A stretch of 64,000 nucleotides of DNA from Candidatus Bathyarchaeia archaeon (GCA_038882975.1 JAVZNE010000004.1:37127-101126), one strand, 5' to 3'. Positions 35,963-61,016 are shown, counted from the stretch's first letter. Numbers and translations are program-made. Notes: a model not told the origin generated them from the sequence alone.

Positions 35963-38269
35963 TTAAGATTGCGAGAACCCAGCGGCAAAGACTTGGCCAA
36001 ACGATAAGCCGCCATCACCCGGCGGAATAGCCTCGTGAAAGAGAAATTTTAAGCCAGCCGCCTCGACGGTTTCCTGCATAATTTTGGCTAATATTTCGTT
36101 ACATGCAGCCCCACCAGAAAAACCGACGACTTTCACACCATTTTCTAAAGCTTTTTCAATGGCTAATTCTGCTAAGCCTCGGGCTAGGTATACATGGGCG
36201 GAAAAAGCCAAATCATGTATGGGGCGTCTTTCTCTGTTTTCAAATATCTCCAGTAGCAGTTCTGTAGTGTTTAGGGTTTCACCCTCAATTATTGGCTTCA
36301 AATTTAGCGTGTCTTTTCCTTTCATGGCTGTTGATTCCAGCTTCATGGCAGGCTCGCCCTCGTATGTTCGTTCAAAACAAACACCTAAAACAGCTGCTAC
36401 AGCATCTAAAATCCTTCCACAACTTGTCGTTTTAACTGTGCCATGTCCCCTTCTAAGTTGCTGAAGAATCAGCTGAACCTCGTTTTCGCCGTAAGGGAAA
36501 TACCTCCTATTTCGCATGAGCCAGTCTTCCACATCCACCTTTTTGTATAATATTCCAGCAGCTATTCTAAGCGGGTAACGGGTGGCCAAATCTATGCCAA
36601 TCATTGGCTGTTTTTCAAGGTGGGCCAGGCGTTTAAATTCCATTGAATCTTTCAATCCTAGTATTATTTCGCCTCCCCACGCTTCGCCGTCAGCGCCGTA
36701 CCCGTAGCCGTCACAGCAGACGCCGATAATTTCGGATACGCCGTGCTCAGCCATTAAGGCTGCAACGTGCGCGTAGTGGTGTTGAATTTGGAAAAGCTGC
36801 CAGCCGTTCTCCTCAGCTAAATCTTTGGCGAGCTTTGTTGTTGTGAATTTTGGATGCAAATCGCATGCAACGGCGCTCACTTTACTGTTTGTTAGACGAA
36901 TTAAGTGTTTGGCGGCGCTTTCCAAGAAATCCCGCGTTTCTATGTTTTCCACATCGCCTATATGTTGAGATATAAAGGCTTTGTTGCCAAGCAAAACGCA
37001 AGCAGTGTTGTTCAGTTCTCCCCCCAAAGCCAAGACACATTTTTTGGCTTTTTCCCTCAAAATTACCGGCGCTGGTGCATAACCCCTTGAACGTCTAATA
37101 AAAACCAGTTTTTCGCCGTGCACCCGCACAACCGAGTCGTCGCATCTGTGGGCTATCCGCCTATTGTGAAAGAGGAAGTAATCAACAATATCGCCCAACT
37201 TTTTTAGGGCTTCCTCGTCGTCTTTAACTATGGGCTGGTTGGGCGGATTGGCGCTGGTCATGACAAAGGCCGGCTCTTCTATATTGTCAAACAACATGTA
37301 GTGCAAGCCTGTATAAGGAAGCATAACGCCAACATTATGCAAGCCAGGAGCAATTAAATCTGAAAGGTGGTATTTGCTGCTTTTTTTCAGGAGCACTATT
37401 GGGCGTGTATAGGAGGTTAAAAGCTCTGCTTCTTTTGGGCTTACTTCGGCGAAGGACCGCACAGCCTCAAGGCTTCGCGCCATAATAGCGAAGGGCTTCT
37501 GCATCCTATGCTTAGCCTTTCTAAGCCTTATTAGAGGCTTATCCTTTGTAGTTGCTGTCGCCACATGAAAGCCACCATACCCTTTGATTGCGACGATAAA
37601 GCCTTCTGCAAGCAGTTTACCCGCCTCTCTTATCGGGTCGTTGGAGGAAACCAGTTCGCCTTTGCATGTGGTTAAGTAAACCTTAGGGCCACATTTTGGA
37701 CAAGCCACCGTTTGCGCGTGGAAACGCCTATTCATAGGGTCTTTGTACTCTTTTTGGCAGAAACTGCACATGGGAAAGTCCCGCATTGTGGTGTTTTCCC
37801 GGTCGTAGGGAATTCTCTCAATAATCGTGTATCTTGGACCGCAGTCAGTGCAGGTTATGAAAAAGTATTCGTATCTGGGGTTGCCTTTCTCCCTTAATTC
37901 CTTTAGGCACTCGTCACATATGGCAACATCTGGCGGAATAACAGAGCCGGAAAGCTCAGACTCCTCAGAGCTTTTCTCGATTGTAAAGCTTGTATATTGG
38001 TTTTCGCCCTCAAGTTTTAATGTAATAATTTCGTGAATATGCGCCAGTGGCGGCTTCTTTTCTTTCAAATCCCTTAGGAAACTATGGATGGCTTTTTCTT
38101 CGCCTTCTAGGAGGATTTCAACTCCCGCGTCACCCATATTTCTAACATAGCCTTTCAAGCCGTTTTTTACGGCTATGCGGTATATGAAAGGGCGAAATCC
38201 AACACCTTGAATTATGCCAGTGACTCTAACTTTGACTCGCACTGTGTCCATCTCTTGAAGCTTAATCAC
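35963..38269 (-). CDS. hypF: Carbamoyltransferase HypF
   Basis: Acylphosphatase GIIQGVGFRPF, Zn fingers, QHHYAH, PPGDGGLSFGQ. Confidence 0.97.
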   Translation of the reverse strand: MIKLQEMDTVRVKVRVTGIIQGVGFRPFIYRIAVKNGLKGYVRNMGDAGVEILLEGEEKAIHSFLRDLKEKKPPLAHIHEIITLKLEGENQYTSFTIEKSSEESELSGSVIPPDVAICDECLKELREKGNPRYEYFFITCTDCGPRYTIIERIPYDRENTTMRDFPMCSFCQKEYKDPMNRRFHAQTVACPKCGPKVYLTTCKGELVSSNDPIREAGKLLAEGFIVAIKGYGGFHVATATTKDKPLIRLRKAKHRMQKPFAIMARSLEAVRSFAEVSPKEAELLTSYTRPIVLLKKSSKYHLSDLIAPGLHNVGVMLPYTGLHYMLFDNIEEPAFVMTSANPPNQPIVKDDEEALKKLGDIVDYFLFHNRRIAHRCDDSVVRVHGEKLVFIRRSRGYAPAPVILREKAKKCVLALGGELNNTACVLLGNKAFISQHIGDVENIETRDFLESAAKHLIRLTNSKVSAVACDLHPKFTTTKLAKDLAEENGWQLFQIQHHYAHVAALMAEHGVSEIIGVCCDGYGYGADGEAWGGEIILGLKDSMEFKRLAHLEKQPMIGIDLATRYPLRIAAGILYKKVDVEDWLMRNRRYFPYGENEVQLILQQLRRGHGTVKTTSCGRILDAVAAVLGVCFERTYEGEPAMKLESTAMKGKDTLNLKPIIEGETLNTTELLLEIFENRERRPIHDLAFSAHVYLARGLAELAIEKALENGVKVVGFSGGAACNEILAKIMQETVEAAGLKFLFHEAIPPGDGGLSFGQVFAAGFSQS

Positions 38270-39115: not shown

Positions 39116-40654
39116 ATGGCGATTGGCATGCAAAAACAAGAAGAGGCAAGGTTTGAAACTTACTCAACAAGCCTATGTCCAGAATGCCTAAACAGGGTTC
39201 CCATGAGAATCTATGAGGAACACGGCGTAATATACCTTGAGAAAACATGCCCAGAACATGGAAAGTTTGAAGATGTTTACTGGGGGGACGCTGAGCTTTT
39301 CAAATGGATTTACAGAGAATGGTACAACGCTAAATACATCGGAAGTGGATTAGAGAACCCCCACACAAAAACCGTTAAAGGGTGTCCCTACGACTGTGGC
39401 TTATGCACCCAACACAAGTCCTACACGGTTTTAGGCATAATAGACGTCACAAATCGGTGCAATATGGCTTGCCCCGTCTGCTTCGCCTATGCCGGGGCGG
39501 TCAACTATGTCTATGAACCAACATACGAACAGATTGTAGACATGATCAAACTGCTTAGAAACAATAAGCCATGGGCTTGCAATGCGCTTCAGTTCAGCGG
39601 GGGCGAACCAACAATAAGAAATGATCTGCCACAACTGGTCGCGGAGGCGAAAAAGGCGGGTGTGGAGCACGTGGAAGTGAACACTAATGGCTTGCGCCTT
39701 GCAGAAGACATCGACTACTTCAAAAAGCTTTTAGACGCCGGCATGAGCACACTTTACCTTCAATTTGACGGTTTAAGGGAAGAAATCTACAAGAAAACAA
39801 GGGGCAGAACAGACCTCGTAAAAATCAAGCATAAGGTTTTGGAAAACGCTAGAAAAATAGGCTTAGACTCGATAGTTTTAGTCGTAACCCTTGCAAGAGG
39901 TGTAAACGACAAAGACCTCGGCGACATAGTACGCTATGCAGTTGAAAACCACGATGTTGTTAGATGCATAAACATTCAACCCATTTCCATGGCTGGGAGA
40001 GCCCGAAGTGACGAGATGCGGAAAATGCGCATAACAGTGCCAGACACCATTAAACTGATAGAGGAACAGACAAACGGAATTGTCACGCGTTGGGACTGGC
40101 GTCCCGTCAATTGGCCTGTTCCAATTTCCAAGGGCATGAGCATTGTAAAGAATAGGGTTTATCCAGAATTCACAATGCATCCCATGTGTGGAGCGGCAAC
40201 CTTCCTTGTTGTTGAAAAGGACGGTTCATACAAGCCCATTACGCAGTATGTGGATGTTGACCGTTTCGCCGAAATCTTCTGGAACATCTACTATTCTGGC
40301 GTTAAGGGCAAGAGGACAACAGCGAAAATGAAGATGTTGGAACTATTGCCATTAGTGAAGTCGCCGCTTGTTAGAGGCTTGCTTAAAGATGTTATAACGA
40401 AGGGAAGTTATGAAGCGCTTGGAAACTTCATGCGCAGGATAGTCATGATTGGGATAATGCACTTTATGGACGTCTGGAACTTTGACCTAGACCGCGTCCA
40501 AAGATGCGTTATACACTATGCAACGCCCGACGGCAAAGTTAGACCTTTCTGCACATACAACAGCCTCCACAGAAACAATGTGGAGAAACAGTTCGCCATT
40601 TCGGTAGACGAATGGACTAAAAAGTTTGGAAAGAGGCTAAGCGAGCCGGTTTAA
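39116..40654 (+). CDS. tes: Tetraether lipid synthase (Tes/GDGT-MAS, MJ0619 family radical SAM)
   Basis: N-terminal CPEC..CPEH, CPYDCGLC, CNMACPVC, HPMCG, MHFMD..NFD..R..RC.IHY..PDG...PFC.YN. Confidence 0.88.
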   Translation: MAIGMQKQEEARFETYSTSLCPECLNRVPMRIYEEHGVIYLEKTCPEHGKFEDVYWGDAELFKWIYREWYNAKYIGSGLENPHTKTVKGCPYDCGLCTQHKSYTVLGIIDVTNRCNMACPVCFAYAGAVNYVYEPTYEQIVDMIKLLRNNKPWACNALQFSGGEPTIRNDLPQLVAEAKKAGVEHVEVNTNGLRLAEDIDYFKKLLDAGMSTLYLQFDGLREEIYKKTRGRTDLVKIKHKVLENARKIGLDSIVLVVTLARGVNDKDLGDIVRYAVENHDVVRCINIQPISMAGRARSDEMRKMRITVPDTIKLIEEQTNGIVTRWDWRPVNWPVPISKGMSIVKNRVYPEFTMHPMCGAATFLVVEKDGSYKPITQYVDVDRFAEIFWNIYYSGVKGKRTTAKMKMLELLPLVKSPLVRGLLKDVITKGSYEALGNFMRRIVMIGIMHFMDVWNFDLDRVQRCVIHYATPDGKVRPFCTYNSLHRNNVEKQFAISVDEWTKKFGKRLSEPV

Positions 40655-54111: not shown

Positions 54112-55383
54112 TTAAATGGAAAAAGGCAGAAAATAGACCAGTAAAGCTGTTGCAAAAGTCGGTATAAATGATGGAATCACATACTTGTAAACTTTGCCCA
54201 AAGGGCTTTTGAAATAGTCAGCCGTAAACGTGAAACAAAGGTGAGTAGGTGAAATAGTATATCCAAGATAAGCACTAATATACAGAAGCGCAGCGATTTT
54301 AGGCGAAAAAGTTAGAATCCCCGTTAAAACTGGCACACTTATGGCTATTGCTCCATGTGGGGAGCCTGTGAGAAAACCCAAAACTGCGGGTATAACTGTC
54401 AACAGTATTACAGTGTTTACGTTTCTGCTAGTAACAAACTGTTTGAAAACCTCAGAAACGCCAGCAACAACAATCACATTGCGAAGTAGAAAAGCTCCAT
54501 AAACGGCAAAGGTCACCCCGTAAATTCCCCAACTTCTAAGCGGCTTCACCAGCGCCTTGCAGTTCAGTCTAGAAATTATGGCTAAAACCACCAATCCCGC
54601 AAAAGTTGCTATTAGAACATCAAAGCCTTGCCTGGACAAGCTATGACTTAAAGCGCCTATAAAAACGGCCACAACAATAGTTGCTGTTATAGGAGAGAAC
54701 GATATAAAGAAACGTTTAAACTCCAAACTGACCTTGCCTTTTGACGCTCCAGATGTTTCTTCACTTTTTACGCTTGGAATTTTCCAGAAACCCGCCAAGA
54801 AACCAACAATAATCATCACTGTAACTGTTGGAATTTGAAGCAAGATAATTGAAAATAATGCCACCCCAGTTAAGGCAGACGTCACTATAAGTACTTGGCT
54901 TAATGGATAAACAGGAAAAATTGTGTGCCTAAACCACAAATTCACATAAGCTTTTCTCTCCGCCTTCAATTTCAACTTTTCAGCCTCCCAATCCACTATA
55001 GGAGCCGACATCAAAGCCCCACCAGCCACTTGAAGAAAACCTATCACTGCTGGAAGCACGCTTAAAACAATCTTTGGATTCTTAACCAGCCGGCTTAGGC
55101 TATCACTTAATTTGGTGATTTCCCCCGTCTCTTTGTATAGTTGGCTTAACCACATTATGCCGAAAGTCGCAAAAATAACTGATATCGCCAAAAGCCCCTC
55201 CCTCTTCAAAGGGTCAACGGTTGCATAAACTACGCTGGGAATGCCCCACCAATCCAGCGAAAGCAAAGCCAAAAGAAGGGCGGTTGCGTTTAGGGTTATC
55301 CCCAAATTAACACGCTTGTAAAGCAACGAGCCAAGAAAGCAAAAAGAAATCACCACAGCAGTCAAAGGATCAAGCAATCCCAA
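54112..55383 (-). CDS. DUF401 family membrane transporter
   Basis: GGALMSAP, NLWFRH, SPTHLC. Confidence 0.85.
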   Translation of the reverse strand: MGLLDPLTAVVISFCFLGSLLYKRVNLGITLNATALLLALLSLDWWGIPSVVYATVDPLKREGLLAISVIFATFGIMWLSQLYKETGEITKLSDSLSRLVKNPKIVLSVLPAVIGFLQVAGGALMSAPIVDWEAEKLKLKAERKAYVNLWFRHTIFPVYPLSQVLIVTSALTGVALFSIILLQIPTVTVMIIVGFLAGFWKIPSVKSEETSGASKGKVSLEFKRFFISFSPITATIVVAVFIGALSHSLSRQGFDVLIATFAGLVVLAIISRLNCKALVKPLRSWGIYGVTFAVYGAFLLRNVIVVAGVSEVFKQFVTSRNVNTVILLTVIPAVLGFLTGSPHGAIAISVPVLTGILTFSPKIAALLYISAYLGYTISPTHLCFTFTADYFKSPLGKVYKYVIPSFIPTFATALLVYFLPFSI

Positions 55384-55472
55384 ACCAAGGCATCCCTTTC
55401 AAACATTGAAAACCAAAATATACACCCAACACTTAATCCTTTCCATAAAAACATCACTAAAGGCGCAACCAC

Positions 55473-55801
55473 ATGAAAGGAAAGCCTTCATCTCCGGACC
55501 AATCCAAGGCATGGAAACAAAACAATCATGCATAGAAACTATACGAAAATTTGCATCCGCCATGGATATGAGCCAATTGACCCATGGCAACGCGAAAAAA
55601 TCTACAGAAGCACAGAGCCGGGTTGGTGGATAAAGTTCCAGCGCAAACTTCATAAAAAGGGATTTAGAAGACATAGAAAAAGGCGACATTTTAATCGCCT
55701 ACATGCCAAAACTTTTCTACGCAAAAATGAAAAACAAAAAGACCATAAGTATATGTCAACTCAAAAACCCAAGTCCATGGATAGTGGCGCACTCAAAATA
55801 A
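55473..55801 (+). pseudogene. Frameshifted nucleoside 2-deoxyribosyltransferase-like gene
   Basis: Pieces in different frames: KAFISGPIQGME / GYEPIDPWQRE / FIKRDLEDIEKGDILIAYMPKL-FYAK..NPSPWI. Confidence 0.7.
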
Positions 55802-55805
55802 AACC

Positions 55806-56684
55806 TTAAATTTTTACGGCGGCCCTTAACTTCGCTGATCTGGCTCTAGGATTTTCCGCAACTTCGTCTTTAGGAGGCTTGACAGGCTTTTTCGTTAAAA
55901 TTTTAACAGCACCCTCTTTGGCCTTTTTCCTTAGAAAACTTTTGACAATGCGGTCTTCTAGGGAATGAAAAGAAATAACCACAAGCCTACCCCCCTCATC
56001 CATTACGTCAAGGGCTTGAGGCAAAGCCTTTGCCAAATTCTCCAACTCATTGTTCACAGCTATCCTCAAAGCTTGAAAAGTCCTAGTCGCAAAGTGAATC
56101 CGCCCTCTATGATACCATGATGGTGTCGCCCTCTCAACAGCCATAACCAAATCCACAGTTGTCCTCAAAGGCCTAGACCGCACAATTTCTTCGGTAATCC
56201 TCCGCGCAAACCTCTCCTGCCCATAAACCCTCAAAATCCGCTCAATATCCTTTGCGCTCCAAAAATTCACTATAGCCTCAGCAGTTAATGGATTTTTTGG
56301 GTTATATCGCATATCAAGCGGCTCATTCCGGAGAAAAGAAAACCCCCGACCACTCTTCTTCAAGTGCCAACTTGACAAACCCAAATCAAACAAAACCCCG
56401 GAGACACGCCTAAAAGCGTATCTCTCAACTATTTCGCCCAAATCAGCAAAGTTACCACACGCAAGAACCAAACGCCTCCCATAATCAGTATCCTCAACCT
56501 TCCGCCTAAGCCTCTCTAGAATCACAGGGTCAGCATCCACCCCCAAAACCCTCCCAAAAGGACCAGTCCGCTCCAAAACAGCCAAAGCATGACCACCCAA
56601 ACCCACAGTACAATCAACAAAATCCTCACCAGATTCGGGATCAAGAAAACTGATAACCTCATCCCTCATAACTGGCAAATGCAA
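55806..56684 (-). CDS. rsmH: 16S rRNA m4C1402 methyltransferase RsmH (MraW), bacterial type
   Basis: HLPVM, DCTVGLGGH, DLGLSS, RGFSF..EPLDMR, TRTFQALRIAVNNEL, ISFHSLEDRIVK, NPRARSAKLR. Confidence 0.95.
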   Translation of the reverse strand: MHLPVMRDEVISFLDPESGEDFVDCTVGLGGHALAVLERTGPFGRVLGVDADPVILERLRRKVEDTDYGRRLVLACGNFADLGEIVERYAFRRVSGVLFDLGLSSWHLKKSGRGFSFLRNEPLDMRYNPKNPLTAEAIVNFWSAKDIERILRVYGQERFARRITEEIVRSRPLRTTVDLVMAVERATPSWYHRGRIHFATRTFQALRIAVNNELENLAKALPQALDVMDEGGRLVVISFHSLEDRIVKSFLRKKAKEGAVKILTKKPVKPPKDEVAENPRARSAKLRAAVKI

Positions 56685-56779
56685 ACCAGACACCACAAAC
56701 CTCAATAAATTTGAAGCACAACTCATTTTAATGTTTATTTCTAACTCACTTACAAATAATGCTATACACAACTTAAAAG

Positions 56780-56852
56780 TGCGGCCGCCGGGATTCGAAC
56801 CCGGGTCGCCGGCTCGGGAGGCCGAAGTCCTACCAGGCTAGACTACGGCCGC
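56780..56852 (-). tRNA. tRNA-Gly(CCC), intronless
   Basis: GCGGCCG acceptor, anticodon arm TCGGC-CTCCCGA-GCCGG, T arm CCGGG-TTCGAAT-CCCGG, A73. Confidence 0.95.
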
Positions 56853-56951: not shown

Positions 56952-58595
56952 TCATGATGCATGCTTTTTTGATTCAGAAACTTTTTCATGCGCTTTCTTT
57001 GAGAAGTAAATAGTTGTTAAGATGAAAATGGCTGTTGTTGCAGCGAAGATATACATCAAACCTCTGAAATTTTGCGTTTGAGCCTGATACAATGAGTCCA
57101 TGACATTGAATTCATTTTGAAGTTCACTGTAATCTCTTAAAATATTATCAAGCGTCGCATTCAACGTGTTAAGCTTTTCAATAAGCGCATTAATGGTTGC
57201 ATTAAATTCTTGGAAGCTTGCACTTAGTTCCAAAAGCTCCGAATACGATTCGTTCAAGACATGATACTTACTGAGCAACTCTGAATAATCAGAAAGCAGC
57301 TGACTATATCCGTCCAAAAGCACGGAGTATGATTCGTTTAAACTGCGATACCTATTAAGCAACTCTGAATAGGACTCATTCAAGACATGATACTTTTCAA
57401 GCAACTGATAATACCAGTCTAGGAGTTCCGAATACACTATTTTGATAGAACAGCCACTCGAATGCTCAATATACAAGTAGAAATGTTCCATATCTTCAAC
57501 ATTAAGCAAAGTTACATTAACCTCTTCCTCATTAACAAGCACTGCATGTATGCTTTTCATTAATGCTTTAGGAATGACAACCCTACTAAAACTTGCAGAA
57601 CCACCGTCACCGCTAGCATTAAAAAGTATAACTCTAGCTTTCGTTTCAGCCATCATTTTAAATGTAAAATCAAGAATCGTTGAATTAGATATTATAACGA
57701 CATAATTAATGTTTCCGCTAAAAAGCGCAATAAATTTGTGAAACATTCCCATCAAAGGATAATAATCGATGTTTCCTTCGGCAATGTTGTAGGGAAGATC
57801 ACCTATACCGTCTTTGTTTAAATCTTTCCCATTATAGTCATCCCAATAATTGCCCTCACCATCGACGCTCCACGTATTAGTTGTCTGCTCGGCATAAACG
57901 TTGTAATTGTTATTGATGAAATTGTTGTGGTAAAAAACGTTGTTGTCACTATTCCAAATATATATGCCCCAATCATTACTGGAGAATGTATTTTCATAAA
58001 TCGTGTTGTTGAAAGAATAGTAATAAATGTCGATTCCATCAGAATTGTCCTTAAAATCATTTCTACATATTGTGTTGCCGCTTGAATAAATAAGTTGAAT
58101 GCCAAAATAGTTTTTTGATATCGTGTTTCCACATATTTGATTCTGACTTGAAAATGTTATTTGAATCCCTATGTTATTGCTTTCTACTTTATTGTTGCTT
58201 ATCACGATGTTTCTAACGCGGTCCGCATATATCCCGCAACCTACATGGGGATCACTGTTCCGTATGGTAAAACCGCTGATGTTAACGTTTGAAGCTTGTA
58301 TTGAAATTACGTTTCCTACGCCGCCTCCATCTATAATTGTGTTTTCTCGGTTTTCTCCTATTAGTGTAATACTTTTATTGATAAGAATATTTTCTGGGTA
58401 TGTTCCTGAACGTACGTAGATTATGGCTCCTTGACTTGCATTATTAATGGCGTCTTGAATACTGTCAAAATCGTCGGGGACTATTAAAGTTGTTGAACTG
58501 GCATTTGTGAGCAATTTGTCGCTTTTGAGGATTGCAGTTGCGTACAGGCACAATATTAGTGGGATTAAGCTTGTTTTAAGTAGGTTTTTCTTCGT
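56952..58595 (-). CDS. Secreted NosD/CASH parallel beta-helix protein with coiled-coil stalk and C-terminal TM anchor (start extended to ACG 58595)
   Basis: VPDDFDSIQDAIN, GTYPEN, PbH1 repeats, GNYWDDY.G.D.N.DGIGD.PY, heptad repeats, terminal TM. Confidence 0.85.
   Translation of the reverse strand, partial: TKKNLLKTSLIPLILCLYATAILKSDKLLTNASSTTLIVPDDFDSIQDAINNASQGAIIYVRSGTYPENILINKSITLIGENRENTIIDGGGVGNVISIQASNVNISGFTIRNSDPHVGCGIYADRVRNIVISNNKVESNNIGIQITFSSQNQICGNTISKNYFGIQLIYSSGNTICRNDFKDNSDGIDIYYYSFNNTIYENTFSSNDWGIYIWNSDNNVFYHNNFINNNYNVYAEQTTNTWSVDGEGNYWDDYNGKDLNKDGIGDLPYNIAEGNIDYYPLMGMFHKFIALFSGNINYVVIISNSTILDFTFKMMAETKARVILFNASGDGGSASFSRVVIPKALMKSIHAVLVNEEEVNVTLLNVEDMEHFYLYIEHSSGCSIKIVYSELLDWYYQLLEKYHVLNESYSELLNRYRSLNESYSVLLDGYSQLLSDYSELLSKYHVLNESYSELLELSASFQEFNATINALIEKLNTLNATLDNILRDYSELQNEFNVMDSLYQAQTQNFRGLMYIFAATTAIFILTTIYFSKKAHEKVSESKKHAS
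57230..57440 (-). repeat. Heptad/14-aa coiled-coil tandem repeats (KYHVLNESYSELL)
   Basis: KYHVLNESYSELL twice plus variants; DNA ttcaagacatgatactt at ~57253 and ~57379. Confidence 0.85.
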
Positions 58596-58628
58596 TTCCT
58601 GACACCTCCATAAATGTTTGTTATTCGT

Positions 58629-59240
58629 TTAATCTTGCGATAGTGCTCTTCCGAGAGTAATAGAGCACAAAATGGCTATTGAAAATGATCCTACAACAAT
58701 AATCGGGTCGATAATGGGTTGTAGTAAATTCCAAACAAGGATAGCGTGAGAAAGGGCTATTATGAAAGCCAATATGTAGGCTTTTGGTTTTAGAAGTCTT
58801 GTAGGATATTTTGTTATTTTATGTTGGTTGAGAATTGCCTTTAATTTTTCTTTTGCTTGCTGTATTTGTTCGTCTGTTACAAGGGATACATGGTTTTTGT
58901 CGCTGTCGATGAATTTTAGGCTTAGAAGAGCGTACCGCTGTAGTTCCCACGGCTTAGTTTTTGGCAGGATTTTTATTACTCCGCTTTTCTCTAATTTTTT
59001 GAGGATTGTTTGGGTTTTGCGGATGAGTTGAACGTCGTTTACTTTTTCTTCGCCGTGAAGTCTTTTAACTAGTTCTTTGACATCTGGGAAATTTAGTTCT
59101 AACTGAAAGTTTGCTATGACTTTTGAGAGTTCATATTGATACTCGCCTTCTCTTAGGCGAATGCTGGCAACTTTATAATCTGAGCTTAATGCTTCTTCTA
59201 AAAAGCGTATTTCATTAGATGTTAGTTTATGTTCCGACAT
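58629..59240 (-). CDS. Hypothetical protein: wHTH-like soluble region plus two C-terminal TM helices
   Basis: RKTQTILKKLEKSGVIKILPK..PWELQRY; hydrophobic C-terminus. Confidence 0.7.
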   Translation of the reverse strand: MSEHKLTSNEIRFLEEALSSDYKVASIRLREGEYQYELSKVIANFQLELNFPDVKELVKRLHGEEKVNDVQLIRKTQTILKKLEKSGVIKILPKTKPWELQRYALLSLKFIDSDKNHVSLVTDEQIQQAKEKLKAILNQHKITKYPTRLLKPKAYILAFIIALSHAILVWNLLQPIIDPIIVVGSFSIAILCSITLGRALSQD

Positions 59241-59407
59241 AATTCGATTACCCTTTCAACAGTTTCAATTGAAATAATATAAAGGCGAGCGTATATAACT
59301 ATTTTTAACTTTCAACGGTTGCAGTCATAATTGTGTTTTTATTCAATGGTTTCTATGGAAAAAATCCATTTTCCTTTAAAGCCTTAGAAATATGTTAGGT
59401 TATCGGA

Positions 59408-59806
59408 ATGGGGGTTGTTTTAGAAAAGTTTCCGTTGATTAGCAAGGAGCGCGTTTTCGGTAAGAGGTATCGGAGTTCCTTTGAGATTATAGCGTCTATT
59501 CTTGAGATTGCTGTTAAGGGGGTGAGTCGTTTTGTTATTGCGAATCGCCTAAATACTAATTACGCGCAGCTTCGAAGGTACTTAAGCTATCTTGTTAGGA
59601 TGGGTTTTATTGATGCTGAGGCTGATGGGAGGAAGATCTTATATAAGACTAGCGGGAAAGGTTTGGAGTTTTTAAGGTTATACTACGCGTTATTAGAGAT
59701 GTTTCTGGAGGATGCTGAAGCAGAAGCATATACTAGTGTTATTCGCGAATGTGCTGGTAGGCAAATGATAGCGAAGGGGAGAGGCAGGCGGAGTTTCGGC
59801 TTATGA
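59408..59806 (+). CDS. Winged-helix transcriptional regulator (archaeal HTH_45-like)
   Basis: RSSFEIIASIL..NTNYAQLRRYLSYL..GFI..YKTSGKGLEFL. Confidence 0.85.
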   Translation: MGVVLEKFPLISKERVFGKRYRSSFEIIASILEIAVKGVSRFVIANRLNTNYAQLRRYLSYLVRMGFIDAEADGRKILYKTSGKGLEFLRLYYALLEMFLEDAEAEAYTSVIRECAGRQMIAKGRGRRSFGL

Positions 59807-59933
59807 TTTTCTCCCTTCTCCTTTCGGCGTGAGGTTCGAATCCGCCTGCCCCCAAAAACCTTTGTTGATTTCTTTTGGTGAATCTTTAAAAGGCGCTTTT
59901 TGTAGATTGGTGTAGTTGTGCGGGGGTTGTTGT

Positions 59934-61016
59934 TTGTCCAGCGAGTTTACTTATGCTGGTGCTGGTGTTGATAGGGGGTTGAGGGTTAGGGCTAAGGGTG
60001 CTTTGCGCTTTCTGCGGAGGACTTATGGTTTTAGTCGTTATGGTGGGGTTTTGCAGCTTCCTTATGGGGTGATTTTTCCTTTTCGCGATGGCGTTTATTT
60101 GGATCTTGTTGTGGAGGGTGTTGGCACTAAGGTTTTGGTGGCTCAGTTAGCCGATAAGTACGATACTATTGGTGTTGATGGTGTTGCTATGGCTGTTAAT
60201 GATGTTATTCGTTCCGGCGCTAAACCTTTAGCCGTTGTTGATAATATTCATGCTCAAGTTTCCAACCCAAGTTTGGTTAGAGAGTGGATGAAGGGCATAG
60301 TGAAGGGGGCTGTTGAGGCTGAGTGTGTTGTTCCGGGCGGCGAGATTGGTGATGTTGCTGAGTTGATTAAGGGTTTGGTGGAGGGGAAGGGTTTTGACAT
60401 GGTTTTTGCTTCTGTTGGTGAAGTTTCTAAGGACAAAATTATTTATGGGAGGGATGTTAAGCCTGGTGATGTTGTTGTTGGTTTGCGGAGTTCTGGAATT
60501 CACAGTAATGGTGTGACATTGGCGCGGAGGGTTTTGTTTAAGTGTTGGGGTGGCATATACGACCCGTTTGACGTTCCTGAACCTCTTGAAAGAGAACTGG
60601 TTTATGAGGTTTTAGAGCCTACTAGGATTTATGTTAAGCCTTTCCTGCGGGTTGCAGACGAGGTGAGGGTTAAGGCTGCTGTGCATATTACTGGTGATGC
60701 CTATTTGAAGTTTGACCGTTTAATGCTTTTCTCGAAGGGGATAGGCTTCGAGTTTAACAATTTTAAGCCCCAGCCCATTTTTGAGGTGATTCAGAGGGCT
60801 GCTTCTGAGCTTGGCGGCAAAATATCGGATGAAGAGATGTTTAAGACTTTTAATATGGGCTGGGGCTTCGCGGTAGTGGTTGACAAGCAAGATGTGGATA
60901 GGGTTGTTGACGTTTTGGAAAGGTCTGGGGTGCATGCCGAAGCTATAGGATGTGTGACAAGCACTGGTGGAATCCGAATATTCTATAAAGGCAAGAGTAT
61001 GCTTTTGAAAAGGTAG
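59934..61016 (+). CDS. purM: Phosphoribosylformylglycinamidine cyclo-ligase
   Basis: YAGAGVD, EGVGTK, SSGIHSNG, HITG, TFNMGWG. Confidence 0.95.
   Translation: MSSEFTYAGAGVDRGLRVRAKGALRFLRRTYGFSRYGGVLQLPYGVIFPFRDGVYLDLVVEGVGTKVLVAQLADKYDTIGVDGVAMAVNDVIRSGAKPLAVVDNIHAQVSNPSLVREWMKGIVKGAVEAECVVPGGEIGDVAELIKGLVEGKGFDMVFASVGEVSKDKIIYGRDVKPGDVVVGLRSSGIHSNGVTLARRVLFKCWGGIYDPFDVPEPLERELVYEVLEPTRIYVKPFLRVADEVRVKAAVHITGDAYLKFDRLMLFSKGIGFEFNNFKPQPIFEVIQRAASELGGKISDEEMFKTFNMGWGFAVVVDKQDVDRVVDVLERSGVHAEAIGCVTSTGGIRIFYKGKSMLLKR

Follow-up and report, generated by a model that had tools for sequence, protein, structure and literature searches.

The rsmH locus and its neighbours

The 64,000-nt stretch of a Bathyarchaeia genome analysed here (the window, from whose first letter all positions are counted) carries a coding sequence at 55806..56693 (-), stop included, which encodes 295 aa from a GTG at 56693. 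The frame itself is open over 55806..56771 (-), from the stop upstream through an ATG at 56726 to a TTG at 56771 (321 aa). Its product scores 306.2 bits against the Pfam family PF01795 (MraW methylase; cut-off 27) and 287.4 bits against the NCBIfam equivalog TIGR00006 (RsmH), above the cut-off of 154.3. Moreover, it aligns over its full length with the T. maritima MraW structure 1m6y (265 bits), residues 13-306 of the window RsmH matching residues 7-296 of 1m6y with large gaps absent, and thus has the two-domain architecture. Weaker alignments were obtained with the Thermus protein (204 bits), E. coli RsmH (189) and mitochondrial METTL15 (164-166). Taking as conserved any column with one residue in 90% or more of the 150 best-matching representatives of the family, the window RsmH keeps 48 of 49 such positions, including the GxGGH and DLGxSS motifs, the exception being a leucine replaced by methionine. 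The kept positions span both domains, and no clade-specific insertion or domain loss was seen in the protein. The window gene is an intact bacterial-type RsmH in an archaeal lineage, so that the sequence-only reading, which had claimed an intact enzyme from its hallmark motifs, is confirmed by the profile scores, the structural alignment and the conserved positions. The protein itself is an ordinary RsmH: this is a new host domain for a well-known family and not a new type of system, and the NCBI pipeline already annotates RsmH by name in related genomes.

Directly upstream of rsmH, on the same strand, ARAGORN finds a tRNA-Gly(CCC) gene at 56779..56852 (-), the sole CCC isoacceptor that it finds in the genome. 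The spacer from the tRNA 3' end to rsmH measures 85 nt if counted to the GTG at 56693, or 52 nt to the ATG at 56726; the adjacency claimed from the sequence therefore stands, while the distance of about 95 nt given with it has to be shortened to 85 nt. The GTG is the start used in public protein records, and an alignment of 11 upstream regions shows the GTGGTGT at this start to be kept in relatives. The same alignment reveals a conserved A/T box, AAACATTAAAATG, at 56724..56736 (-) between tRNA and rsmH, within which the ATG at 56726 falls. Read by eye, this box is possibly a candidate archaeal BRE/TATA promoter element.

On its other side, rsmH is followed by the remains of a nucleoside 2-deoxyribosyltransferase-family gene, at about 55472..55800 (+) and convergent with it, and then by a DUF401/TIGR00529-family membrane protein gene at 54112..55383 (-), which is conserved and serves as the downstream synteny anchor. 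The former has at least two frameshifts, is split over three frames and falls short of the copies in relatives by about 110 nt; the gene is intact (about 138 aa) in 10 related loci, and one such 138-aa orthologue (L026:4897-5313) scores 38.2 bits against PF05014 (cut-off 28.8). Upstream of the tRNA lies a variable block, represented in the window by a NosD-like beta-helix protein gene at 56952..58553 (-). In congeners this protein is 48-93% identical or missing (L009, L010, L030), and in some congeners without it purM abuts the tRNA. Further neighbours of rsmH are a 203-aa ORF of unknown family, a winged-helix protein and purM/purL.

In bacteria, rsmH usually, though not by definition, follows mraZ at the start of the dcw cluster. 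A search of this genome, which is 94.7% complete, found no MraZ, and no dcw genes occur among the nine ORFs scanned around the locus. The host contig is archaeal, because it carries SecY and the tetraether lipid synthase Tes and because intron-bearing tRNAs are among those of the genome (ARAGORN). Thus, several of the features noted from the sequence, namely the archaeal flanks, the missing mraZ/ftsL context and the adjacent pseudogene, are borne out.

Distribution of rsmH in archaea

The host is a Bathyarchaeia MAG with an estimated contamination of 2.9%, and its nearest public genomes, judged by title, are Bathyarchaeia from hot-spring assemblies. In whole-genome searches with TIGR00006, which matched 10 of 10 bacterial and none of four archaeal control genomes, rsmH was found in 13 of the 14 genomes of the genus (12 of 13 without the present one) and in 29 of 151 genomes of the family, distributed over 14 of 70 genera. 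None of the 16 genomes from other families of the order has it. Within a sample of the class, 6/301 genomes exceeded the cut-off, all of them from the host family; eight matches of 20-28 bits in another family were rejected as unrelated methyltransferases. The sequence-only reading had held out, as the contrary outcome, a broad and vertically inherited archaeal RsmH clade; what the phylum sample contains is three positive genomes among 401, again all in the host family. In a large protein collection, the best 120 matches are 67-100% identical to the window RsmH, and all 29 organism-bearing names among them read Bathyarchaeia, Bathyarchaeota, Bathyarchaeales or Nitrososphaerota archaeon.

Our literature search found no publication covering both Bathyarchaeia and RsmH. 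In the accessible part of Kimura and Suzuki 2010, neither rsmH nor rsmI is found in archaea and COG holds no archaeal rsmH.

Vertical descent at one syntenic locus

To follow the gene within the family we used a SecY tree (FastTree) of 90 of the 147 family genomes with a SecY match, one to several per genus, plus five outgroups; as a single marker, SecY is only a proxy for the species tree. A core clade of 26 genomes from 11 genera (support 100) contains 23 rsmH-positive members. The three negative ones, with completeness values of 91, 62 and 76%, all belong to genera with positive members. The RsmH proteins of the core clade likewise form one clade (100/99 in the careful tree described below). 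Across genera the same order recurs: rsmH, the deoxyribosyltransferase-like gene, DUF401, two small membrane genes, orf136, hsp20 and a phosphoesterase. Within the genus, the pairwise dN/dS of rsmH has a median of 0.094 (range 0.066-0.154; 36 pairs from nine sequences); for DUF401 next to it the value is higher, 0.127. Because one SecY clade, one RsmH clade, one locus and purifying selection coincide, rsmH is an old, fixed acquisition, under purifying selection and inherited vertically at one syntenic locus in 11 genera.

One genome in the SecY comparison, G748, has two SecY matches, one of them 95% identical to that of the window although the genome is filed in another genus; it may be contaminated.

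tRNA genes as recombination points

We scanned 24 archaeal loci, some of which are the same genome twice, and found a tRNA-Gly directly upstream of rsmH in 14. The isoacceptor is CCC in the window and most congeners and GCC in three loci, while tRNA-Gly(TCC) takes this place in other genera, in one case with an intron, and tRNA-Glu(CTC) or tRNA-Leu(TAA) in two further genomes. The GCC loci can be traced to a rearrangement. In this genome, tRNA-Gly(GCC) lies 62 kb from tRNA-Gly(CCC), inverted, 5.5 kb before the start of the window, and the two genes have identical 3' halves. In two of the GCC loci (L026 and L034), the sequence on the upstream side of the tRNA runs collinear with that just upstream of this genome's tRNA-Gly(GCC), and in L026, for which this was checked, the downstream DNA matches the rsmH side. 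Because of these collinear flanks, we read the exchange of CCC for GCC as a 62-kb inversion with its ends in the two tRNA-Gly genes. In two relatives that have no rsmH, tRNA-Gly(GCC) adjoins DUF401 in the opposite orientation. Recombination here occurs at tRNA genes, and rsmH has kept its place after one of them.

Bacterial origin and probable donor

The best named non-archaeal matches in species-representative genomes come from a Saccharibacteria genome (L036) and an unclassified bacterium, both at 53% identity. Among 1.8 billion cluster representatives, the best non-archaeal matches are 55-58% identical to the window RsmH; the ten best score 298-366 bits, compared with the 265, 204 and 189 bits of Thermotoga, Thermus and E. 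coli, and those with an organism name are all CPR. We then relied on a careful IQ-TREE analysis of 74 rows, which leaves out 15 of 38 distant representatives and uses a subset of the 120 archaeal matches. Rooted on E. coli RsmH, it places all archaeal copies within a 63-row clade supported at 99/96, in which the bacteria named to phylum are Saccharibacteria, Gribaldobacteria, Pacebacteria and 'Patescibacteria group', that is, CPR in four cases of four. With this root, archaeal RsmH is nested several supported nodes deep in bacterial diversity. The next node inside is a 60-row polytomy (87/78, with the bootstrap unconverged).

A second line of evidence comes from the organism names among the 120 proteins nearest to each of two profiles. 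A profile built from the nine closest representatives retrieves three CPR names, one 'bacterium' and one 'Hodarchaeales archaeon', while none of the 11 names retrieved with a profile of ten representatives from outside the 63-row clade is CPR; the latter are Poribacteria, Auribacterota, Bipolaricaulota, Chloroflexota, Armatimonadota, Deltaproteobacteria and Aquificae. In the Saccharibacteria genome, the homologue has the canonical bacterial setting, mraZ-rsmH-small gene-ftsI-mur. From this context in CPR and the near-universal distribution of the gene in bacteria, we infer that the transfer ran from bacterium to archaeon. The cross-domain origin suggested from the sequence is thus supported by the 99/96 clade with its exclusively CPR names. 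The resemblance to CPR RsmH that the sequence-only reading had put forward holds with moderate strength: the best named match is from Saccharibacteria (53%), the 99/96 clade is shared, and no CPR name appears among the 11 retrieved with representatives from outside it. On these sequence comparisons, we assign the donor to a CPR/Patescibacteria type with moderate confidence.

As a separate lead only, a look-alike search in a protein atlas gave Minisyncoccota as the nearest cluster other than its own, a name that its source, as far as available, gives as the validly published one for CPR.

The opportunity for such a transfer is plausible by analogy. CPR are now known to include parasites of archaea. 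A cross-domain symbiosis between CPR and an archaeon is documented in the accessible text of PMC12281837, and such contact could provide the physical opportunity, with no such symbiont linked to Bathyarchaeia here.

The history within the family is more complex than the core clade suggests. Three rsmH-positive genera (g36, g42 and g263) stand elsewhere in the SecY tree among negative genera, giving seven state changes in all; their rsmH genes have different neighbourhoods, on contigs with intron-bearing tRNAs. The careful tree groups the RsmH of g36 with that of g42 in a second clade (100/99) and leaves the g263 copy on its own. From these placements it follows that extra transfers or many losses have occurred. 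A quick IQ-TREE run had split the archaeal copies three ways, with G684 in a CPR group at 95; we did not retain this split, as constraining the 30 archaeal rows to monophyly scored higher (delta lnL +30.5 over the quick free tree, p-AU 0.88) and the careful tree has a polytomy there. These trees are compatible with one entry followed by spread and loss inside the family as well as with several entries.

Other accounts of how the gene came to lie here have to be weighed against an old acquisition from bacteria. That assembly or binning wrongly attached a piece of bacterial DNA to an archaeal contig might be suspected here, the genome being a MAG with some estimated contamination, and the sequence-only reading had pointed to chimeric junctions as the danger. 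We regard this as extremely improbable: archaeal SecY and Tes lie on the same contig, the GC content of rsmH (0.462) is at the genome mean, and an exact 503-nt contig (55652-56154) from a public hot-spring run spans the rsmH 3' end and its junction. This piece comes from a set of four such runs, whose contigs are short and strain-mixed, and none of the exact pieces listed from them bridges the tRNA-rsmH junction. More than 10 genomes from separate assemblies, however, share the order tRNA-rsmH-DUF401 and its junctions, and for this reason we rule out a chimera. Very improbable, too, is an ancient archaeal RsmH that goes back to the shared ancestor of both domains and has disappeared from nearly all other archaea. 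The monophyly of all sampled archaeal copies, which is not rejected, would fit such a history, but the scarcity of the gene (three of 401 genomes in the phylum, none of the four archaeal controls), the nesting of the archaeal copies inside bacterial diversity under the E. coli root, and the absence of archaeal rsmH from COG in what is available of Kimura and Suzuki 2010 all speak against it.

Transfer at a tRNA hotspot was the account favoured by the sequence-only reading. Taken as a recent insertion of foreign DNA beside tRNA-Gly in this very genome, it appeals to the start of rsmH only 85 nt past the tRNA 3' end, to a tRNA directly upstream in most relatives and to the variable block on the far side of the tRNA. 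We nevertheless consider it improbable, and the claim of a local event is not supported: the locus and its synteny are common to 11 genera, with matching gene and species trees; the GC content does not depart from the genome mean; no integrase family occurs among the nine ORFs scanned around the locus; and the 3' 26-mer of the tRNA has no second copy in the 64-kb window at up to three mismatches. Moreover, the tRNA partner varies between genomes, one of the swaps is an inversion between tRNA-Gly genes, and the two relatives without rsmH have their tRNA-Gly beside DUF401 in reverse. An ancient tRNA-targeted integration is possible, one that has left no trace in the sequence.

Strand skew of rsmH and of genes beside tRNAs

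The coding strand of rsmH is very G/T-rich, as had been remarked from the sequence: its GC skew of 0.355 is at the 99.7th percentile of 790 long ORFs and its AT skew of -0.143 at the 3rd. The skew is concentrated in third codon positions (GC skew3 0.58, AT skew3 -0.47), and on a combined skew index rsmH ranks 3rd of 1185 ORFs, with purM in first place. An orthologue from the genus is skewed in the same way, while CPR homologues and the g36 copy are not.

Genes beside other tRNAs provide a lead. With rsmH itself excluded, and using stop-to-stop frames rather than curated genes from this one genome, the 16 co-directional genes directly downstream of a tRNA have a median index of +0.14, against -0.11 for the rest (p = 9e-5). 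The corresponding medians are -0.60 for the 19 co-directional genes directly upstream of a tRNA, +0.11 for neighbours divergent from a tRNA (n=14) and -0.24 for convergent ones (n=14). A single pattern fits the four classes: the tRNA-sense strand is rich in C and A before the tRNA and in G and T after it. Because CPR homologues are without the skew and native tRNA-adjacent genes have it, we take the G/T skew to be imposed by the host and not to be a signature of the donor.

Two other causes were tried and rejected. Against replication-strand bias, the skew follows the coding strand of genes on either strand, and genes with a high index are dispersed over contigs and strands; against an effect of being the first gene of an operon, the first and last genes of same-strand runs away from tRNAs have similar median values (-0.06 vs -0.13). 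A possible cause, in a thermophile, is that cytosines near very active tRNA promoters are deaminated in connection with transcription. If this holds, the skew hints that rsmH lies within the transcriptional reach of its tRNA.

Proposed function in the archaeal ribosome

The cytosine at position 1402 (E. coli numbering) is universally conserved and lies at the P-site of the decoding centre. In bacteria, RsmI adds a 2'-O-methyl group there, which together with the action of RsmH gives m4Cm. No 16S gene is assembled in this genome, and the target site was taken from relatives: two rsmH-positive congeners (G005 and G013) and two rsmH-negative relatives all carry the same sequence there, GCACACACCGCCCGTCG, in their 16S genes. 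With the target the same whether or not rsmH is present, nothing in these sequences marks a co-adapted substrate. The accessible portion of a Haloferax modomics table has no entry for a modification at the equivalent position of 16S rRNA.

We propose the following course of events. The ancestor of a sub-clade of one Bathyarchaeia family would have gained rsmH from a CPR/Patescibacteria-type bacterium and retained this gene alone, without mraZ or the flanking cell-division genes of its bacterial relatives. The gene would then have been fixed, adopted the base composition of its host and descended vertically in the arrangement tRNA - rsmH - deoxyribosyltransferase-like gene - DUF401. Its product is predicted to bind the assembled archaeal small subunit and, with SAM as methyl donor, to methylate N4 of the C1402-equivalent at the P-site. 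The resulting nucleotide would be m4C, as in mitochondria, and not m4Cm, because RsmI (TIGR00096) has no match in this 94.7%-complete genome and a crude pattern search found no C/D-box guide for the C1402-equivalent (12-nt guide with up to two mismatches; 10-nt core with up to one). This search, which placed the C1402-equivalent five bases from the D box, is not evidence of absence. Taken as a whole, a CPR-type acquisition that was fixed and that still methylates the C1402-equivalent of archaeal 16S rRNA is the account we hold to be probable, and we infer both the target and the expression of the gene from sequence and conservation.

The main rival keeps RsmH functional and gives it another target, a different cytosine in archaeal rRNA or tRNA. 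Purifying selection, after all, proves that there is a function and not which one, no RsmI partner was found, and archaeal small subunits differ from bacterial ones; indeed, the archaeal 30S has different proteins around the decoding centre. A further N4-cytidine methylase of archaea uses another 16S site on assembled ribosomes, according to the accessible text of PMC11551388. Retargeting nevertheless appears unlikely to us, since the enzyme keeps 48/49 conserved positions across both domains, with neither a clade-specific insertion nor a domain loss to be seen, and the ancestral target sequence is intact in relatives. We thus retain the C1402-equivalent as the probable target.

It is tempting to speculate further, and here we are tentative and somewhat doubtful, that function and locus are connected: in a clade of hot-spring Bathyarchaeia, the archaeal P-site would have been re-tooled with a bacterial or mitochondrial type of m4C by an enzyme captured from CPR, with rsmH kept behind tRNA genes by dependence on, or shaping by, their transcription, and the G/T skew shared with other tRNA-adjacent genes would be the mutational footprint of this transcription. 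If this joint reading were true, archaea would for the first time be seen with a decoding-centre modification that came from bacteria, and the clade would serve as a natural experiment on whether an rRNA modification enzyme can cross domains.

The distribution itself contradicts the textbook one, as RsmH has so far been seen as bacterial or organellar and as absent from archaea (Kimura and Suzuki 2010, in its accessible part). Our surprise is moderate, since the protein is an ordinary RsmH that NCBI's pipeline had already named. As selection has maintained rsmH in at least 11 genera of one archaeal lineage, cross-domain substrate recognition by a decoding-centre methylase becomes directly testable, and so does the effect of m4C in such a ribosome. 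Moreover, the find adds a gene of the informational machinery to the short list of CPR-to-archaea exchanges.

Comparison with known systems

Bacterial RsmH/MraW, the m4C1402 methyltransferase of 16S rRNA (TIGR00006, PF01795; structures 1m6y, 1wg8 and 3tka), has the same family, length and two-domain layout as the window protein. In contrast to it, the window copy resides in an archaeon, without the mraZ/ftsL/ftsI context and without an RsmI partner; it follows a tRNA gene and an A/T box of archaeal appearance, and its activity is a prediction. The closest named relatives are the CPR proteins, with L036 at 53% identity and the shared 99/96 clade. A DLG-SS-WH form of the motif is common to CPR RsmH and the window RsmH, although this likeness is anecdotal, as a DLGxSS regular expression missed 47/181 rows. 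The CPR gene lies in an mraZ-rsmH-ftsI-mur cluster and is free of the third-position G/T skew; the window gene is the opposite on both counts.

METTL15, the m4C methyltransferase of mitochondrial 12S rRNA, is a homologue and offers a precedent for RsmH-type m4C without RsmI. It is much more distant from the window RsmH in sequence, and the ribosome on which it acts is of bacterial descent, whereas here the ribosome is archaeal. TK2045, the m4,4C synthase of Thermococcus kodakarensis, is likewise, in the accessible text of PMC11551388, an N4-cytidine methylase from a thermophile that works on assembled archaeal ribosomes; it differs from RsmH in belonging to another family, in acting at another site (C918, helix 31) and in being native to archaea.

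Rearrangement and gene content around the tRNA-Gly genes

A ~62-kb segment that takes in almost all of the window is inverted in the host genome (G000) with respect to the congeneric loci L026 and L034, and the ends of this inversion fall within two tRNA-Gly genes. These are tRNA-Gly(GCC), on the forward strand of contig C4 (31559-31634), 5.5 kb ahead of the window start, and tRNA-Gly(CCC), on the reverse strand of the window (56779-56852); they lie in opposite orientation and their 3' halves are identical. The window also carries the genes for the tetraether lipid synthase Tes (39116-40654, forward strand; NF045702, 623 bits) and HypF (35963-38269, reverse strand), both ordinary archaeal genes, which confirms the host domain.

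Upstream (5') of tRNA-Gly(CCC) there is a variable block, at 56952-59806, made up of a NosD-like beta-helix gene, an unknown 203-aa ORF and a winged-helix gene. The NosD-like proteins of congeners share just 48-93% identity, and the three loci L009, L010 and L030 lack the block altogether, purM directly adjoining the tRNA there. At 55472-55800, on the forward strand, lies a frameshifted and shortened pseudogene of the nucleoside 2-deoxyribosyltransferase family (PF05014); this gene is intact in ten related loci and is also disrupted in L029, L003 and L032.

Third-position skew around tRNA genes

Across contigs C1-C15 of this one genome, G/T skew at third codon positions reverses sign across tRNA genes. 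The median skew index was +0.14 in co-directional genes directly 3' of a tRNA (n=16; p=9e-5 versus the rest) and -0.60 in those directly 5' (n=19), with +0.11 in divergent and -0.24 in convergent neighbours (n=14 each). In all four neighbour classes the tRNA-sense strand is C/A-rich upstream of the tRNA and G/T-rich downstream. Away from tRNAs, this index differed little between the genes that open a same-strand run and those that close it. It is possible that a transcription-linked mutational footprint causes this tRNA-centred pattern in this genome. Genes of the window that show the skew are rsmH (55806-56693) and purM (59916-61016). The variable block has a third-position skew unlike that of its neighbouring genes.

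RsmH in other archaeal genomes

Beyond the core clade, RsmH is borne by three more Bathyarchaeia genera, g263 (G684), g42 (G723 and G324) and g36 (G296, G195 and G754). Their loci (L050, L051 and L150-L152) are unrelated ones that lack the tRNA-Gly/DUF401 context, and two of the three genera, g36 and g42, have in common a second RsmH clade.

In the RsmH tree, a protein labelled 'Candidatus Hodarchaeales archaeon' clusters with Patescibacteria (CPR)-type sequences and is almost identical to one labelled 'bacterium' (the pair P0382 and P0370, with branch lengths of 0.012 and 0.019). This represents either a mis-binned bacterial contig or a further archaeal acquisition. Separately, genome G748 (locus L056), filed in genus g269, has two SecY matches, one of which is 95% identical to the window SecY and falls within genus g1; contamination or mixed binning is the likely source of this double SecY.
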